64,000 nt of DNA from Roseibacillus sp. (GTDB lineage Bacteria; Verrucomicrobiota; Verrucomicrobiia; Verrucomicrobiales; Akkermansiaceae): NCBI GenBank assembly GCA_051251855.1, contig JBPOGI010000002.1, forward strand, positions 64,001-128,000. Reading direction: 5' to 3'. The position numbers were made by a program, and so were the translations under genes. Below are positions 3,010-20,685 of the stretch, piece after piece. The first letter of the stretch is position 1; every line of letters begins with the position of its first letter. The notes under the pieces were generated by a model that did not search any database, had not been told where the DNA came from, and saw nothing but the letters and a program-made list of their open reading frames with translations.

Positions 3010-3696
3010 TTACAAATGCCCTCCCGGTCGAGGGAGGTCATCCCAATTTCCATCAAAGCAATTTGCCGCTGTGCCTACAAACGCTTCGAAAAATCGTCGC
3101 CGCATATCGGAGTCTTCTTTGAATACTGACATCCAAACGCCAAAAAAACCGTAGCCCTTTGCTACATCCGTGATGGTTTCTCGCATTTCATCAGTGTCGT
3201 TTCTTGTAAGCGCGGCAAATTTTCTGATGGCAAGTTCCCACACTAATTCTCGGTTTGCGAATCGCGCGTCTCGCTCGGCAGGTTGTTTTTCGGGTGGTTG
3301 TCCCGGATGCCGATCTAAACCTACGAGATCGATGAGTTCTACGGCTTTGTCTTTAAGCTCGGAGGATAGGCCATCTGCGGTTCCAATAAGACCGCCTGGT
3401 TGATAGCCGATGGCTCTAAGAGTATTGTCTTTGTCCGGCCAGACAAAGTCGTTGTCGTTTGTGGGTTTTGCTTTCTTTACAGAATTACAACTCTTGCAAG
3501 CCAAGAGGAAGTTGGTCCAATCTTTTTCTCTCTCCTCGTCTAGGCTTTTCGGAGAGACGTGTTCGACAGCAAGCTCGCTTGGGAAATGACGCTCGCAATA
3601 GGAGCAATAACATCCTAGGCGTTCTTCGAGATCTCCAATGGCGTCACCGTAGTGACTGTATTCTCTGGGAGCGCTGCCTCTTTCTACCGGTCTCAT
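3010..3696 (-). CDS. HNH endonuclease, Septu PtuB-like
   Basis: YCSYCE...VEHVSPKS...WTNFLLACKSCNSVK; overlaps the upstream ATPase by 4 bp. Confidence 0.85.
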   Translation of the reverse strand: MRPVERGSAPREYSHYGDAIGDLEERLGCYCSYCERHFPSELAVEHVSPKSLDEEREKDWTNFLLACKSCNSVKKAKPTNDNDFVWPDKDNTLRAIGYQPGGLIGTADGLSSELKDKAVELIDLVGLDRHPGQPPEKQPAERDARFANRELVWELAIRKFAALTRNDTDEMRETITDVAKGYGFFGVWMSVFKEDSDMRRRFFEAFVGTAANCFDGNWDDLPRPGGHL

Positions 3697-5168
3697 TGGT
3701 CTTCGTGTTGTAGCTCTTCGGACTTGAGCAATGCATGGAGAGCAGGGTGCGAAGTGAAGGGCTCGGACGCTTCTCGATACGCCAATTTGGCCTCCTTGAT
3801 GCTTTCGTGGTTTTGGGGTTCTTCACGCAGTAGGGAAAAATATCTTGTTGCGGCTTTACTTAGTTCTTCAGCCCGTCTTCCTCGCTGTGGTAAATCGATT
3901 CCTTGAATGTCTTCGACAATGTCTTCGATACTTCTGCTTTCGGCTTCGAAGGAATGAGGTCCAGCCTTGGTTACCTTCATAATTTTTTCGACTGGGACGC
4001 TTTGAATGACGAAGGGGGAATGGGTCGTGGCGATGAACTGGCAGGATGGAAAAAGCTCTTCCAGATAGGGGACGATCATTCGTTGCCATCTCGGGTGAAG
4101 GTGAACGTCGATCTCGTCGATAAGAATGATTGCTGATGATTCTGTGATTGGGGAGGATGGATCAAGAGACAGGTTCCACGCGATGTCAATGAACAGGGAG
4201 AGCAACCGCTGTTCCCCATCCGAGAGTTGACCAATCGGCAAGCTGCCATCGGGTGTGTCGATGACAATCCTTGGCACGAGTTTGACTTCCGCCACATATG
4301 AATCGATGAACGACGGTTCCCTTAGATCTGTAACCTCAAGTGCGACTTGGGCAAGTTGTCTAAAGGGTGTTGATACGATGCCTAGTTTTTCATTGCCCTT
4401 TATAAAACCATCGGCATTTATAGTGATACTCCTTTCTTCAATGCCGTTGAAAACATCGGGATTGAGCTGGAAGATTCTCATCAAGAGTTCCGGCATGTCT
4501 TTGACAAAATGAGCCTCTTCTTTGTCTCCAAGATGTTTTTCATCTACTCTGTTGAGCGAGCAAGAGTAAGCTTCAAACCGCCAATGAAATTTAGTAATTC
4601 GATCAGAAATTCTAGAGAGAGCATCTTCTAGAAAAGCTCGAATTTCAAGGCCACGGACTGAACTCTCGCTAGTAGGGTTGGCAGGCTGACTAACGCGTTG
4701 TGGGCGTTGCTTGGATTCGTGCTCTAGTTGGTAAATTCTTTCCTGAAAATCAATGTTACGGGTCGAGCTTTTATTTTTTGGCGTCCATGGGGGTCTTCCT
4801 CTCAAGTTGTTTACAAGAGCTTCATTCGACCCATAGAAGAGGATCTTTATATCAGATTTGTCTCCTCCACGATAAAGTCGATCACCGAATCGACGCTGGT
4901 ATTGAAAGTCTCGTTTTTGATGATTATCGCCGACCAGAGAAGTTAAAATTTGAAGGCTGTCTTCTCCAAGTCGTATGTCTAAGTTGTTCAACGCATGTCT
5001 TTTTAAAGAGATTTTCCTCGGTGAACCCAAGCACATGAAGATTGAGCGAAGCACGGTAGTTTTTCCAAATCCGTTTTCGCCGACCAAAAGATTGAAGCCT
5101 TTATTAAAACTGTATTTAGCTTCCGCGAACTGTCTCACGTTATTCAATCGAAGTTTTTCAATGTGCAT
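3693..5168 (-). CDS. ABC/AAA ATPase, Septu PtuA-like
   Basis: Walker A GENGFGKT, signature LSDGEQR, Walker B ILIDEIDVHLHPRWQR, TTHSP. Confidence 0.85.
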   Translation of the reverse strand: MHIEKLRLNNVRQFAEAKYSFNKGFNLLVGENGFGKTTVLRSIFMCLGSPRKISLKRHALNNLDIRLGEDSLQILTSLVGDNHQKRDFQYQRRFGDRLYRGGDKSDIKILFYGSNEALVNNLRGRPPWTPKNKSSTRNIDFQERIYQLEHESKQRPQRVSQPANPTSESSVRGLEIRAFLEDALSRISDRITKFHWRFEAYSCSLNRVDEKHLGDKEEAHFVKDMPELLMRIFQLNPDVFNGIEERSITINADGFIKGNEKLGIVSTPFRQLAQVALEVTDLREPSFIDSYVAEVKLVPRIVIDTPDGSLPIGQLSDGEQRLLSLFIDIAWNLSLDPSSPITESSAIILIDEIDVHLHPRWQRMIVPYLEELFPSCQFIATTHSPFVIQSVPVEKIMKVTKAGPHSFEAESRSIEDIVEDIQGIDLPQRGRRAEELSKAATRYFSLLREEPQNHESIKEAKLAYREASEPFTSHPALHALLKSEELQHEDQ

Positions 5169-10876: not shown

Positions 10877-10912
10877 AAAAAAATGGGGCGCAGGAAATGA
10901 ATCCCACGCCCC
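10877..10912 (-). terminator. Intrinsic terminator-like hairpin
   Basis: GGGGCG..CGCCCC stem followed by a T7 tract on the minus strand. Confidence 0.6.
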
Positions 10913-10927: not shown

Positions 10928-11452
10928 TTATGCCGCATCAATCAATCGACCTAACTCGTTTTTCAGGCGGACTTTGTCTTCCAGACGGAGCCGACGTGCT
11001 TGGTTTAATACCGTCGCAAGATTCAGCTTTTGAGGCTTCTTCGTTCTTCCGCGATGGTCGGCTTTAGAAGCCGTTCGTCGCGGTTGTGGTCGCGTCACGC
11101 GTTCCCGAATCGGTGATGCCGGGTCAGGTGCTGAATCAGGGGTGTCAGCCCTCGGTTCTGGTTGCGTCTCCACGACCTCATCTTCCGAGCCAGGGGGGAG
11201 CTGCGTTGGAGTGGTATTGTCCTTCGGATGAAAGACGCTGGCCACTTGGGGAGTGTTCTCTAACACTTGCCTGATTTCCTCTGGGTTCACCAGATAAGGC
11301 TGACGCTCGCCTTGCTGTTCTTTTCTTACCTTATTGCCTTTGGCCCATCTCTTAACCGTGGATTCTGCGCAGCCGTATTCGGCGGCTACTTCTTTACAGG
11401 TAGCCCACTTTGTCTCTTGTGAGGCCGAAGCCTCTTCGTTGGTTGTGTTCAT
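10928..11452 (-). CDS. Helix-turn-helix (MerR/excisionase-like) DNA-binding protein
   Basis: WATCKEVAAEYGCAESTVKRWAK followed by a Pro-rich linker. Confidence 0.65.
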   Translation of the reverse strand: MNTTNEEASASQETKWATCKEVAAEYGCAESTVKRWAKGNKVRKEQQGERQPYLVNPEEIRQVLENTPQVASVFHPKDNTTPTQLPPGSEDEVVETQPEPRADTPDSAPDPASPIRERVTRPQPRRTASKADHRGRTKKPQKLNLATVLNQARRLRLEDKVRLKNELGRLIDAA

Positions 11453-11613
11453 AATAAAATTCTAAAATAAAATTGAGGGCTCCTCAGATTCTGGGAGGAG
11501 CCCAGTTGGTTTTGAGAGCCCCCCAGCTGGGGCTCTTCGGACGGAATGTCCGATTGGAGGCGTTGCTCCATTGTTGGACGCTTCGGACACAACTTACGTC
11601 ATGTCCTCCGCAG

Positions 11614-11647
11614 AAACCCATCGGGCACCTCTCGATGCAATGGGCTT
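11614..11647 (-). ncRNA. Group II intron domain V
   Basis: AAGCCCATTGCATCGAGAGGTGCCCGATGGGTTT: 34 nt, AGC triad, 9-bp + 5-bp stems, GAGA tetraloop, 2-nt bulge. Confidence 0.88.
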
Positions 11648-11666
11648 ACTCCAGACGACACCACGC

Positions 11667-13412
11667 TTACGGATGACAATTCACATGAACGAGTTCTGGG
11701 ACGGAATTGCCGTCCCGAAGAGTGGAGACTTGCTGCATACCGTCGCCTGCTAAGAAGCGTCGTTTGCAGTGCGTGCATTTCCCGAGCTGACGCTTGAGAG
11801 ATGAGCGGTTAATCCCACTGGGTATATTTGGATAGGAAGAGGTTCGCCCCCCCCAGTAGTGCCAATCCCCATCAAAGTATGACCGGGAGATTTGCACCAT
11901 GGGAGGAGACCATGCGGTAGATACGTCAGCCACTTTAAAGAGTGTGACATGTTCACCTGCGGGCGACACGTAAGGGCTTTTAAAAACCCAACTGCGTTCC
12001 CGGTCTTCACCATCGCGTCTCTTCATCGGTTTGCCTTCCTTGTCGCGTTCAATCCCTCCGAAGAGGTTATCCCTGCGCCAAGCGGCGGTCTTATGTTTGA
12101 AGCTCCTACTTCCCCAATGGGAGAGGGCCACATAAATGCGATGATCGACCTTGCTGAATGTTCTCTTTGCATTGCAGTGGCGAAAGTAGTTCGCCCATCC
12201 AGCTTGCTTGGCATTTGTCCGACGGATCAAAGTAGAAACTTTGTCGTCTTGGCCTTTGGACATTTGGTGCCTATGTGCTCCTCTTTGCTTCTTGAGGATT
12301 TTAGTATTCTTGATGTAGCCCCTTATTTCGGTCAGATGGCGGGAGACGCTTTTATCTGAGGGAGTGACGATGAAATAGGGTGGTGTTCCTGGCTGTTTAG
12401 CCGGATCGTTGTATCTAGGCTTGCTGAAGTGTTGGAAGTGGAATCCGAGGAAGGTAAATCCAGCACGGTCTCCGTCCTCCGCTTTCTCAAGCGTGTGCCT
12501 AATTTTGGTTTTGCTAGGGTTCAGTGACAGACTGAATTTGCTGAGATATTCCACGAGGGCTATCTGCGCATCTTTGACGATGTCTTTGTCTTCGTGGAAG
12601 ACAAGGAGGTCGTCGGCATAAATAACCAACCCGGGTGTTGGACATCCTTTGGGGAGGATGAGCTTTTCGTTGATGAAATCGGGTAGCCCGGTCATCACGA
12701 TATTGGCGAGGAGAGGGCAAAGAGGGCCTCCTTGCGGAATGCCGTCTTCTTGTTCTCCATCAAGTGTCACCAGTATTCTGCTGACCGCCTTTCGGATCCC
12801 TCTGGTCGAGTCGATCTTTGCTATCAATGTCTCTCGGTCGATGGAGTCGAAAAATTTAGAAATGTCAGCGTCGAGGACCCACGAAGGGCGCTTCCTGAGC
12901 ATGTTCTCAATTTGTCGTCTGGCATCCTGCTGACTTCGCCCCTTTCTGAACCCGAACATGCGTTTGGGAAAGCGTGCTTCGCTCTGGGGTTCGAGCGCCA
13001 TCCGAATCAGTTCCTGGTGGGCTCTGTCGATCAGGTTAGGGATGCTCAGTTTGCGTTTTTCATTCGTGCCCGCCTTTGCGATCTCGGTGTATCGGGGCGG
13101 GGAAGGCTGGTGCTTTAGAGAGAGCGCGATTGCCATCTCGTAGCATGTTTCCTTGTTGGGATTTTTAAGTCTATCCGGTCCGGCCGTTTTGCGGCCGTTG
13201 TTTTGTAAGCAGACTTTGCGCACAGCCAGCGCGCGTGCGCTGAATGATCGCGTAAGTCGCTTTTGCAATCTTTGTGTTAAATGTGAATTTTCACCGTTTC
13301 GTGTGGCGTGATAAATGGCGCTTTGAATTGTGAAAGCTTCCTGTTGAAGCTCTTCCCAATCTAGCTTGTTCCAATTCTGTGCGGCCTGTTGCCGCGATGT
13401 TTTGTGGTTCAT
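11667..13412 (-). CDS. Group II intron reverse transcriptase/maturase (RVT_N + RT + X), degenerate C-terminal HNH
   Basis: WNKLDW, GRKTAGPD, KRKLSIP..DR, FGFRKGRS, DADISKFFD, PQGG, YADD, FLGF, GWANYF. Start moved to MNHKTS because the track start at 13481 falls in DIII. Confidence 0.93.
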   Translation of the reverse strand: MNHKTSRQQAAQNWNKLDWEELQQEAFTIQSAIYHATRNGENSHLTQRLQKRLTRSFSARALAVRKVCLQNNGRKTAGPDRLKNPNKETCYEMAIALSLKHQPSPPRYTEIAKAGTNEKRKLSIPNLIDRAHQELIRMALEPQSEARFPKRMFGFRKGRSQQDARRQIENMLRKRPSWVLDADISKFFDSIDRETLIAKIDSTRGIRKAVSRILVTLDGEQEDGIPQGGPLCPLLANIVMTGLPDFINEKLILPKGCPTPGLVIYADDLLVFHEDKDIVKDAQIALVEYLSKFSLSLNPSKTKIRHTLEKAEDGDRAGFTFLGFHFQHFSKPRYNDPAKQPGTPPYFIVTPSDKSVSRHLTEIRGYIKNTKILKKQRGAHRHQMSKGQDDKVSTLIRRTNAKQAGWANYFRHCNAKRTFSKVDHRIYVALSHWGSRSFKHKTAAWRRDNLFGGIERDKEGKPMKRRDGEDRERSWVFKSPYVSPAGEHVTLFKVADVSTAWSPPMVQISRSYFDGDWHYWGGRTSSYPNIPSGINRSSLKRQLGKCTHCKRRFLAGDGMQQVSTLRDGNSVPELVHVNCHP

Positions 13413-14064
13413 AGAATCGAAGACTGCCTTTTGGTCGTCTTTCCGCGAATTCAGCCTATCCCTTCGATTACCGAAGGGCATTCGCTTGGTCGCTTACCTA
13501 CCCGGGAAGGCATAAGGCTAGGTCCCATCCCTTGCGTCGCCGCGAGGGAAGCCAGTCCCGGTGTCCGAGTTTTCTTGAGGTCTGCGTATGCCGGAAGTCT
13601 TGCGTGCTCCACGCCGCGAAAAGCTCTAGCTGAAACTAGAAACCTGGCGGATAACTGAATCACACATCATCAGCTACAGGTAGGAAGGCATAAGGCCTTT
13701 CCTCTTTTCGGCATTGTTGTTACGACGCTCGATAACACGTTCGCTGTTCGCTCAACTCTTCCGGCGCAAGGTCTGCCCGCTACCCCCAGGATCGCTTCTA
13801 GTGCTAACCCGGAAGGGGCTTTCCTTCGCCTACCGCGCGGCGGCTATCGCGCTCCGTAAAAAGGGGCGTGATAGCTTACCTCAAGAACATCAAGTTCGGG
13901 ATTGGACCGGAACTTGTGGCTCTTTCCTCTTCCCCGACAGAATGCCGGCGAAGCTCCCAGAGCCAATCACGTCGCTTGAGTGAAAATTAAAAAATAGGAT
14001 ATGTTAAAGAACAGGGGACTGAAGAGCAGTGCTCTTTCAGCGGGCACTCGGGCCCTAGGTATTG

Positions 14065-14310
14065 TCACGCGTCGCCACCTTCGGCCTGACCATCGAGGTA
14101 AGACTTTAGGCTCTCAAAACACACCAGCCGTCGACCGGTTTTGTGCCCTTTCTTCTTCAGCAGCACCGACTTGATTTTTCGGTTGCCGATGAGCGCATAG
14201 AGGGTGGTTCGTCCGATTCCAAAAAGCTGAACAGCTTCCGGGATGCGGATGTAAACCGGGTCGCGATTGACCGTGGTGCTTTGTGTTGGTTCCGTCGGGG
14301 ACATGGCCAA
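14065..14310 (-). CDS. Excisionase/AlpA-like HTH protein
   Basis: YIRIPEAVQLFGIGRTTLYALI...IKS...GRRLV..ESL..YL. Confidence 0.8.
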   Translation of the reverse strand: MAMSPTEPTQSTTVNRDPVYIRIPEAVQLFGIGRTTLYALIGNRKIKSVLLKKKGHKTGRRLVCFESLKSYLDGQAEGGDA

Positions 14311-19058: not shown

Positions 19059-20216
19059 TCAGTTGGAGAACCGAGGTAGGGCCGCAGAAGCTTTCTCCAT
19101 CGCTTCGTCGCCGAGGCGGACGTAGACTCGGTGAACGTCGACAGAGTCGTGGCCAACCCACTCTTGAACGACTGCTGCCGGGATGCCTTGAGCATGCAGG
19201 AATGAGACAGCTGTGACCCGGAGGCTGTGAAATGAGAGCTTAGACGCTTGTCTGACGCGATCGCGTCCGTTCTTGGTTGCGCGATGGCTGACCTTCTCTC
19301 GAAGCCCGCAATCGGCAAGAAGGGAGCTAAATTGGTTTGAGAGCGTTGAGGATCCGTTTTCTTCGTAGAGAGCCCCGAGCCTAGGGTGGACCAGCTCTGG
19401 ATGTGAATTCTGTTGCTTCTGGATATTGGCCATGAGGTCATCTGAGATTTTAATTTTCACTGACCGAGAGGTTTTTCGAGTACGGATGCTTAGGCTAGCG
19501 TTTGGGATATCAATGGTGGACCAACGCATAGTGGCAAGGTCACCTAGGCGCTGCCCGGTGTAGATGCCAAAAAGGACCATGCTCTTCCATTCACCGTCGA
19601 TGTGACGCAAGAGGAGTCTGACTTGCTCTTCAGTGAAGGCCTGTCTTTCATCTGCGTTCTTAGAGGGTGCCGCTTTGCGGGAGAGTTTCAGGTTGGCGGT
19701 TGGTTCCTCTAGGCAGAGACCTTCTTTTTGAGCTGCCTTGAAGAGCGCTCTCAAGGCCTTTGTTTTGTTGGTGACAGTGGACTCGGCTACCCGTTCTCTA
19801 AGGTGGTTTCGGTAGCGGGCGATATCGGAGCTGGTGATGTCGGCGAGATCTTGGTCGGCCTGGTCTGCGAGCCAGTCGACAAAGTCCGTGAGGGATTTTT
19901 TGTAGGCTTTGTAAGTGGACTTGCTCGTTTCCCCGGCCTTGCGTTCTAGGTAGAGGCTGAGGTAGCGGCGAACTGTCATCGTGGGAATCAGGTCGCCCGT
20001 GAGTCGTTGATGAAGATCGGAGATCACTTCTTTAACCTGTCGGGCTGAGCGTCGTATTTTGGAAGCGTCCTCAAACTCTTCGGCGAGGCGCTGAGCTTGG
20101 CGGCGGTTCTTATGTTTAGCCGGGAGCTTAGTGGATCGTTCGCAACGTTTTCCGTTCTCATCATACCAAGCGGCGATGAAATATTTTGAGTTCGGTTTGG
20201 TTCGTAGGTAGGCCAT
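19059..20216 (-). CDS. Tyrosine recombinase/integrase
   Basis: TGQRLGD, RKT, FHSLR, VGH, VHRVY; N-terminal arm-binding-like domain. Confidence 0.95.
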   Translation of the reverse strand: MAYLRTKPNSKYFIAAWYDENGKRCERSTKLPAKHKNRRQAQRLAEEFEDASKIRRSARQVKEVISDLHQRLTGDLIPTMTVRRYLSLYLERKAGETSKSTYKAYKKSLTDFVDWLADQADQDLADITSSDIARYRNHLRERVAESTVTNKTKALRALFKAAQKEGLCLEEPTANLKLSRKAAPSKNADERQAFTEEQVRLLLRHIDGEWKSMVLFGIYTGQRLGDLATMRWSTIDIPNASLSIRTRKTSRSVKIKISDDLMANIQKQQNSHPELVHPRLGALYEENGSSTLSNQFSSLLADCGLREKVSHRATKNGRDRVRQASKLSFHSLRVTAVSFLHAQGIPAAVVQEWVGHDSVDVHRVYVRLGDEAMEKASAALPRFSN

Positions 20217-20347
20217 TGAAGGGGGACGTTGGTGACACTAAAAGTGACACTGTAAGAACCCATTCGAGGGTGTTCGTGCAAGTCCAAAAAACGCAGCTGT
20301 AAGGGTTTGAACGGTAGTGAACTACGGCGAACGAAGGTTTCTCTTTC

Positions 20348-20375
20348 CAGGGTTCGAATCCCTGCTGGTCCGCCA
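20348..20375 (+). other. att site: tRNA 3' fragment (T-arm + acceptor strand + GCCA), probably tRNA-Ser
   Basis: CAGGG-TTCGAAT-CCCTG-CTGGTCC-G-CCA with no matching 5' half upstream; G discriminator and implied GGA start suggest Ser. Confidence 0.8.
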
Positions 20376-20685
20376 GACCCCAATCCAGCTCCGCTGGGTT
20401 GGGGTCTGGCTTTTTCAGGAGGGCCGAGAAACCCACCCGAGCCTCCGGCGAGACGGGTTCGAACGCCGTCTTTTCTTTAGAAAAGAATCATTACAAAAAG
20501 AACTCCGGAGGAGGAGTTCTGCACATCGCGTGACCCGAGCGGAGCGAAGATAATCCCTGCTGGTCCGCCAGACCCCAATCCAGCTCTGCTGGGTTGGGGT
20601 CTGGCTTTTTCAGGCAGGGCCGAGAACACATCCGGTCCCTCGGCGAGACGGGTTCGAACGCTGACTTTTCCTTAGAAAAGAAACC
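20357..20685 (+). repeat. Tandem duplication (195-bp period) of tRNA 3' end + terminator + flank
   Basis: AATCCCTGCTGGTCCGCCAGACCCCAATCCAGCTC.GCTGGGTTGGGGTCTGGCTTTTTCAGG at 20357 and 20552; similarity continues to TTAGAAAAGAA. Confidence 0.92.
20372..20416 (+). terminator. Intrinsic terminator of the tRNA locus (second copy ~20567-20611)
   Basis: GCCAGACCCCAATCCAGC/GCTGGGTTGGGGTCTGGC stem plus T5. Confidence 0.8.

Follow-up and report, generated by a model that had tools for sequence, protein, structure and literature searches.

A reverse transcriptase inside an intergenic group II intron-like RNA

The window analyzed here is a whole 64,000-nt stretch of a Roseibacillus sp. (Akkermansiaceae) genome (assembly GCA_051251855.1, contig JBPOGI010000002.1, positions 64,001 to 128,000, forward strand), and coordinates count from its first letter. 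Its minus strand carries an intergenic retroelement of about 2.4 kb, in which an open reading frame (ORF) for a reverse transcriptase (RT) is set in domain IV of a group II intron-like RNA. The initial annotation had described an intact YADD RT within a CL/IIB RNA scaffold between a xis-like gene and a helix-turn-helix (HTH) gene, and this arrangement is present as described on the minus strand. Pfam and TIGR searches of the window proteins show the element to be preceded by an HTH_17 (xis-like) gene and followed by an HTH gene, both co-oriented with it. The element belongs to a CL/IIB group II intron lineage in Verrucomicrobiales that is real and conserved and that breaks a rule, stated in a 2016 paper, that introns without a branch point encode no RT. 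The parts of the element and its flanks are as follows, in the direction of transcription.

14065-14310, minus strand: xis-like HTH_17 gene upstream, optional in the family (Pfam HTH_17, E 6e-7; TIGR01764 weak)
14002-14042, minus strand: hairpin (by folding, no shuffle control), then boxA-like motif GUUCUUUAACA (14012-14002)
13978-13983, minus strand: candidate intron-binding site 1 (IBS1), UCACUC, with 5/6 Watson-Crick pairs to exon-binding site 1 (EBS1) at the canonical register and no background window as good
13565-13977, minus strand: ribozyme domain I, starting AAGCGAC (G1 and U2 lost, C4 and G5 kept)
13799-13789, minus strand: epsilon'-like loop in domain I
13719-13714, minus strand: EBS2 position, unpaired to the flank
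13665-13660, minus strand: EBS1 loop GUGUGA in domain I
13445-13561, minus strand: domain II, junction J2/3 (GUAGGU, 13501-13496), and domain III
11667-13481, minus strand: RT/maturase ORF in domain IV (likely start 13412), with RT0-7, YADD, thumb, and a zinc-binding C terminus without HNH catalytic residues
11614-11647, minus strand: domain V (DV), with AGC triad, GNRA loop (GAGA), and CC bulge (11624-11623)
11577-11612, minus strand: domain VI (DVI), with a basal stem of 2-3 bp, a 3x3 GGA/GAA loop that includes A11583, a GNRA cap, and no bulged A; ends GUC at 11577
11477-11570, minus strand: structured 3' trailer (folding z -4.5) with four hairpins and a U-rich run after the fourth
10928-11452, minus strand: conserved partner gene, with N-terminal xis/MerR-like HTH, disordered linker, basic patch, and C-terminal helices

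The RT is a conserved CL maturase that lacks the HNH catalytic stretch

The RT ORF runs uninterrupted for 604 codons (11667-13481, 604 aa), and the database version of the protein starts at the ATG at 13412 and counts 581 aa; YADD is encoded at 12609-12620. Pfam recognizes RVT_N, RVT_1, and GIIM domains, and the protein scores 219.6 bits on TIGR04416 (cut-off, 300). Its scores on retron and defense-associated RT (DRT) models are far under the cut-off, and by model searches, fold match, and tree it is not of the retron or UG clade. The predicted model, with a predicted local distance difference test score (pLDDT) of 87.3, has as its best fold match the maturase of PDB 8FLI/6ME0, which is also its nearest solved relative by sequence. 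Among the clade proteins, the motif [YF]xDD occurs in 63/63 (YADD in 61, DD in all), the polymerase site and thumb are conserved, and the C-terminal zinc ligands are retained; the HNH catalytic stretch is gone in the lineage. The dN/dS check proposed in the initial annotation gave ratios of 0.14 to 0.29 in all 17 RT pairs tested, which indicates purifying selection, and domain X is under purifying selection as well. At L006/L012, L014, and L015, and in several proteins of alignment A1, the RT frame reads on through DV and DVI before it meets a stop.

A phylogenetic tree of 191 rows was built from the best 120 of 3260 RT homologs together with the RTs from fetched loci. It groups 73 rows (four genes appear twice) into one clade apart from HNH-bearing introns, with a support of 100 in the Shimodaira-Hasegawa-like approximate likelihood ratio test, and when 12 outgroup rows are included the clade nests within CL introns. 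The sister of the clade is a canonical intron, L280 (support, 99/99; members alone, 84/91), which is a long branch. Member RTs are about 33 to 62% identical to the RT of the window, span three host families, and form subclades that track those families. Members were found in 7/401 genomes of a family sample and 15/391 genomes of an order sample (counting L276, an RT fragment without RNA that is excluded from all other counts), and a phylum-wide sample of 400 genomes contained no additional member. Named relatives come from Roseibacillus, Haloferula, Luteolibacter, Akkermansiaceae, and Prosthecobacter. In viral contigs, a search with the DV pattern gave no match, the RT loci examined (L097-L099, L123-L125, L128, L129) were canonical or outside the clade, and xis and HTH alignments revealed no relatives; plasmid and phage collections held distant RTs only, at ≤34% identity. 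DNA was available for 23 member loci, 22 with a 5' end and 21 with a 3' end. Element length ranges from 2352 to 2584 nt, and close relatives that differ by 0.24 to 0.68 at synonymous sites share 85 to 90% identity in the 5' RNA. The phylogeny and homolog collection thus yield a conserved lineage and not a single decayed copy; canonical close homologs at varied sites, which the initial annotation had named as evidence against its reading, were looked for, and the homologs share both the losses detailed below and one context.

The ribozyme core is kept and the branching features are missing across the family

Rfam reported nothing at gathering score in the window; the search suggested in the initial annotation thus gave only a 16-bit D1D4-6 match below gathering, with no DV-DVI family. 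The DV fold exceeds chance. Over 21 members, 96.9% of DV cells pair, a percentage reached by none of 500 shuffles, and 7/14 DV pairs change on both sides while the AGC triad is present in 21/21, kin not being independent. The basal stem of domain III (J2/3 and domain III span 13501-13445) varies in sequence and keeps its pairing. In domain I, 35 of 149 predicted pairs are changed on both sides between this copy and L013, a comparison of two sequences only. An exact 14-nt direct repeat lies inside the ribozyme, at 13505-13518 in domain II and at 13683-13696 in a domain I hairpin; it is probably due to chance or a local copying event, since the closest relative lacks it.

The first nucleotides tell a different story. 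As the initial annotation had noted, the element does not start with GUGYG, reading AAGCGAC at 13977, and this is common to the family: GUGYG begins 0/22 members, where the 5' anchor required CGAC and controls were picked by GUGCG. The pentamers found instead are AAGCG (11 members), CUGCG (7), AAUCG (3), and UAUCG (1). The CC bulge of DV, which had been taken as a further sign of lost splicing, is not diagnostic, because it is carried by only 14 of 21 members (AC, 5; UC, 1; AU, 1) and also by the canonical sister L280.

At the 3' end, comparison with relatives probably places the last nucleotide at 11577 (...GC/GUC) rather than at the 11573 first proposed, although the latter end also folds in this copy; the DVI stem spans 11612-11579. 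An asymmetrically bulged A in DVI was found in 0/21 members versus 26 of the 28 controls with a DV (18 by script and 8 read from folds, with 2 unclear). No DV was recovered from 7 of the 35 control loci, and for L273 and L274, which the script mis-ended, the folds were read instead. Member DVIs have a short basal stem with no loop or a symmetric one. The claim that the branch A is missing therefore stands for a bulged A, while "no A" was too strong: with the end at 11577, A11583 stands at -7 inside a symmetric purine loop. Of the nine members of the focal subclade, eight keep an A at -7, within a 2x2 or 3x3 loop of purines. Symmetric purine loops of this kind are known to form sheared G-A pairs. 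The DVI of L004 is a 5-bp hairpin only, and positions -6 to -9 are free of A in L265, L266, L267, L271, L017, and L038. None of 20 members retains G1 or the penultimate A; the penultimate base is U or C, and every member has a terminal C, as does the gamma' base.

Pairing between the RNA and its flanks was compared with that of canonical introns. For EBS2, 11 controls gave a clear peak (9.8 versus 6.9 shuffled), in contrast to 22 members, which scored 7.3 versus 6.7 (p 0.013) with one high score at a displaced register and no shared register. For EBS1, with loops chosen by hand, the cognate signal was 10.4 versus 6.6 in 10 controls (0/20000 permutations) and 7.7 versus 7.5 in 21 members (p 0.086), without a common register. 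Five of six EBS1-IBS1 pairs nevertheless form at the canonical register in this copy, L013, and L004, and on this basis recognition of the 5' site may persist in a short form. Most other members show, by eye, about 4 bp of EBS1 pairing at registers -1 to -4, which would suggest a 5' site shifted by 1 to 4 nt. The loop directly after EBS2 was considered as EBS1 and then rejected, since it is the next hairpin that pairs with the flank in canonical controls. EBS3-IBS3 had no unambiguous placement. Only L280 and L017 have a helix that closes across the flanks; 19 others do not.

One gene context accompanies the element

The same HTH gene follows the element in 19/20 assessable loci (two show only its start). 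The xis-RT-HTH synteny put forward initially thus holds on its downstream side; upstream, a xis-like ORF ends just before the element in 15/22 loci and is absent in 7/22, and these genes look to be of several unrelated kinds. The HTH gene is under purifying selection (dN/dS 0.15 to 0.55 in 9 pairs), and RT and HTH distances correlate (rho 0.40, 0/5000 permutations). A prediction of an RT-HTH complex, which decides neither for nor against one, scored 0.00. No toxic effector domain is evident in the HTH partner. A boxA-like motif with ≤1 mismatch lies 35 to 77 nt upstream in 14/22 members versus 0/12 canonical introns, as scored with a degenerate pattern written after the members were seen; the consensus used was that of E. 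coli, UGCUCUUUAACA, as given in PMC13753749. The trailer folds with z ≤ -2.2 in 10 of 13 loci folded. A 40-codon ORF crosses this hairpin trailer in the window (11449-11571), its stop overlapping the HTH start codon; its own start codon is missing in L013.

Across loci, the neighbors include integrases, DUF5131, restriction and other defense genes, and several different tRNAs (116/163 ORFs scanned). L280 (L305:5886-12876, genome G865) is a canonical CL intron with GUGCG, branch A, CC bulge, and partly degenerate HNH, set in the order integrase-ORF-xis-[intron]-HTH/ParB-DUF5131. Its insertion point is the loop of a long inverted repeat that separates the xis gene from the HTH-ParB gene; the inverted repeats split by L280 and L017 have z scores of -6.1 and -4.1. 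The L280 site appears to match the expected ancestral insertion, although its downstream gene differs in type. In four genomes of genus g22 (L301, L302, L304, L306), the module has no xis gene and occupies the same chromosomal locus with different upstream cargo, ending about 400 nt from a convergent tRNA-Met/tRNA-Asn pair.

Within the genomes sampled, there was no evidence of mobility in the form of empty sites, multiple copies, or varied sites. The element is single copy in its own genome, and one copy per genome was found where checked. A profile search for the HTH gene matched in 7/401 and 13/391 genomes, and all strong matches, from 16 distinct genomes, carry a clade RT; an empty site was thus seen in 0/16 genomes with the HTH gene. 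A weak match in G285 proved to be an unrelated double-HTH gene. Four public DNA runs of one study, probably the one from which this genome came, contained no joint that skips the element, a weak test as contigs drop rare variants, and the lookup of public runs for the element listed no RNA runs.

A fixed ribozyme-RT module is the favored reading

At the level of sequence, the parts that serve branching and homing (bulged A, G1, penultimate A, EBS2 pairing, and HNH residues) are lost together, and the catalytic core, the RT active site, and the HTH link are kept by selection across three host families. The reading we favor, to which we give an even chance, is that of a domesticated, non-jumping, hydrolytic ribozyme-RT module of integrative islands, which would derive from one CL/IIB intron inserted between xis and HTH genes. 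The initial annotation had proposed a hydrolytic or repurposed module; the shared losses and the fixed context bear this out in part, and from "branchless and fixed" to "repurposed" is a step that we infer. A fixed ribozyme-RT-HTH unit serving the island would fit on all counts, while naming no proven product.

The mechanism we propose is hypothetical in all of its chemical steps. An island promoter would transcribe the unit, and boxA would recruit Nus antitermination so that polymerase crosses some 570 nt of untranslated RNA. The RT would bind and fold this RNA; water, and not a branch A, would cut the 5' boundary under the guidance of a short EBS1 helix of 4 to 6 bp, and the RNA would depart in linear form, whether or not the exons are joined. 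Bound RT might then copy part of the RNA into DNA, and the cut RNA or the cDNA would serve the island, most likely through the amount or activity of the HTH regulator, with no new insertions. Hydrolysis has a precedent in introns with the same RNA changes, as described in PMC4024640, PMC4424553, and PMC4748821. A more specific form is tentative and on balance doubtful: an active group II ribozyme could act as the noncoding RNA (ncRNA) of a new RT-ncRNA kind, cutting itself (or island DNA) hydrolytically and offering a defined template or primer to the RT, with cDNA acting via the HTH protein to switch the island cycle or defense. In its boldest form, which draws on one example and which we regard as very unlikely, the module would replace a replication initiator; the rolling-circle-initiator-like gene of an RT-free second island with the same DUF3102-DUF5131 genes (see below) was not found near any RT module searched.

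Several observations weigh against the favored reading. The HTH profiles were built from RT-linked genes, with only 7 to 8 candidates scored per genome, and the HTH family is larger in protein space, mostly without genomic context; RT-free versions may therefore exist, and empty sites are only "not found in those searched." That space contains roughly 80 full-length HTH relatives; of 10 sampled family members, four lie on contigs equal in length to one with a clade RT, and others lie on contigs of 16 to 36 kb. The patterns for the ends and for boxA were drawn up after the members were seen. RT-HTH co-divergence is equally expected from plain linkage, L271 has no HTH gene, and L276 is a fragment. 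The EBS1 pairs of this copy, L013, and L004 and the terminal C fit an intron that still splices and possibly homes, and the A at -7 of the focal subclade may leave some branching possible.

Chief among the rivals is a selfish linear retroelement that still homes, the 3' end of its linear RNA attacking an empty xis-HTH spacer, the RT using a replication-fork primer, and imprecise upstream joining of cDNA eroding the first nucleotides. Such a route would account for the conserved polymerase site, thumb, and zinc-binding tail, the variable 5' pentamer, the residual EBS1 pairing, and the split inverted repeats of L280 and L017, and linear retrohoming exists (PMC3280974). It explains the RT and the ragged 5' end, yet it needs empty targets and predicts varied sites. 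What we see is no empty site in the 16 genomes, single copies, one context over RTs of down to about 35% identity with subclades that follow host families, and an EBS1 signal that is not significant across members; linear retrotransposition is, moreover, about 1000-fold less efficient according to a passage of PMC4748821. We judge it unlikely.

Quite unlikely, in our estimate, is a trapped intron that only splices, its hydrolytic removal being needed for HTH expression and its protein kept as a maturase with a polymerase site conserved incidentally. The retention of DV, J2/3, the terminal C, and part of EBS1, together with selection on domain X, would be expected of such an intron, and hydrolytic splicing is known from branchless introns (PMC4024640). 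The element is intergenic, however, so no reading frame needs repair, and known maturase-only proteins lose YADD, as sections of PMC4424553 describe, in contrast to the [YF]xDD found throughout this clade.

A noncanonical lariat intron that branches from the A at -7 of the DVI internal loop is highly improbable. That A is well kept in the focal subclade, and intron classes with a 6-nt spacer exist (PMC4748821); it sits, however, in a symmetric loop over a 2-3 bp stem, is lacking in the six loci listed above, has no counterpart in the L004 hairpin, and is accompanied by the loss of G1 in all members. Early decay of an ordinary intron, the alternative named in the initial annotation, is barely conceivable: the Rfam and TIGR04416 scores are under their cut-offs, but the same deviations recur in 21 to 22 loci of three families, and RT dN/dS of 0.14 to 0.29 with DV covariation excludes it.

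Comparison with known systems

The closest systems are the CL-class IIB introns, including the cyanobacterial ltrA introns and T.el4h, which we take to be CL1/IIB1. They provide the best match in sequence and fold (T.el4h, PDB 6ME0/8FLI) and share the six-domain RNA, the RT in domain IV, and the DV triad, and the lineage nests among them. Set against the marks of mobile CL/IIB introns, it has an RT-X protein in domain IV with YADD, placed inside CL by phylogeny, and the DV triad, 2-nt bulge, and GNRA loop, and it lacks the GUGYG and 3' AY ends. It further differs from these introns in having no bulged A, no EBS2 pairing, a dead HNH, one fixed context in single copy, and a boxA-like leader.

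Loss of the branch A and of EBS2 with an altered 5' boundary is shared with the branchless IIB1 introns of mitochondrial pre-rRNA and with C.te.I1 of Clostridium tetani, which splice by hydrolysis according to parts of PMC4424553, PMC4024640, and PMC13190283. As described there, the branchless rRNA introns lost the RT frame and 4/10 gained LAGLIDADG nucleases, and C.te.I1 is without an ORF in the account excerpted from PMC4024640. Those introns interrupt a functional transcript and have no RT, whereas the present element is intergenic, with an intact RT under selection. The G2L domesticated RTs (PMC8632793; G2L4, PMC12337344) are likewise nonmobile group II-derived RTs tied to neighbor genes, but they are defined by absent intron RNA in the relevant section of PMC8632793, unlike the whole ribozyme from domain I to DVI seen here. 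HYER ribozymes, as described in 10.1101/2024.08.31.610620, resemble the element in their group II RNA, short recognition helix, and hydrolytic cutting (the last only presumed here); they are ORF-less class IIC RNAs, in contrast to an RT-bearing lineage nested in CL/IIB. Retrons and DRTs have a comparable fixed RT-ncRNA-partner layout on defense-rich islands, but here the RT is a CL intron RT, the RNA a ribozyme, and the partner without an evident toxic effector domain.

The lineage thus departs from the patterns in Monachello et al.: ribozyme core and polymerase are kept and the branching and homing parts dropped, with the canonical sister L280, in a similar island slot, marking the starting state. 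It would represent either a linear-intron retroelement that integrates by an unfamiliar route or a group II ribozyme and RT recruited together for a non-jumping job. Either way, the lineage is relevant to the origin of retrons, DRTs, and the spliceosome, and it may provide a hydrolytic ribozyme that comes naturally paired with an RT. The literature searched, which left most subscription journals outside, contained no account of this lineage, and published RT catalogues may include its RTs without a name.

The island and its surroundings

A 31-kb island at tRNA-Ser, bounded by a 30-bp direct repeat, carries the element along with Septu, type I restriction genes, and an integrase. One copy of the repeat is the right attachment site listed below, and the 3' end of tRNA-Ser (G000:C6:53111-53140) forms the other. 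Two further features complete the map.

10885-10912, minus strand: intrinsic terminator-like hairpin 3' of the HTH gene (11-bp stem and U run)
19059-20375, minus strand: tyrosine integrase of the 31-kb island, with the right attachment site at 20346-20375

A Septu PtuA/PtuB pair without a retron lies at 3010-5168; its neighbors are a type I restriction-modification system and a PDC-S26-like nuclease (1691-2947). A link between the element and the Septu PtuAB genes was rejected, because 6.5 kb separates them and the neighborhoods scanned yielded no named Septu pair.

The same genome contains a second integrative island (G000:C6:215273-220635; L106:10274-15633) with integrase, DUF3102, and DUF5131 genes. 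It was rejected as an empty site, since it is without RT and HTH together. It encodes a 463-aa protein that is weakly recognized (atlas score 0.95) as similar to Phage_CRI rolling-circle initiators, as well as a DUF3102 protein with long tandem peptide repeats. After the attachment site of the 31-kb island comes a palindromic element in two copies (20357-20682), which are 131 nt long and 91% identical to each other; related copies occur behind another tRNA-Ser and on contig C1. Elsewhere in the genome, ten tRNA genes are clustered within 1.5 kb (G000:C10:114076-115599).

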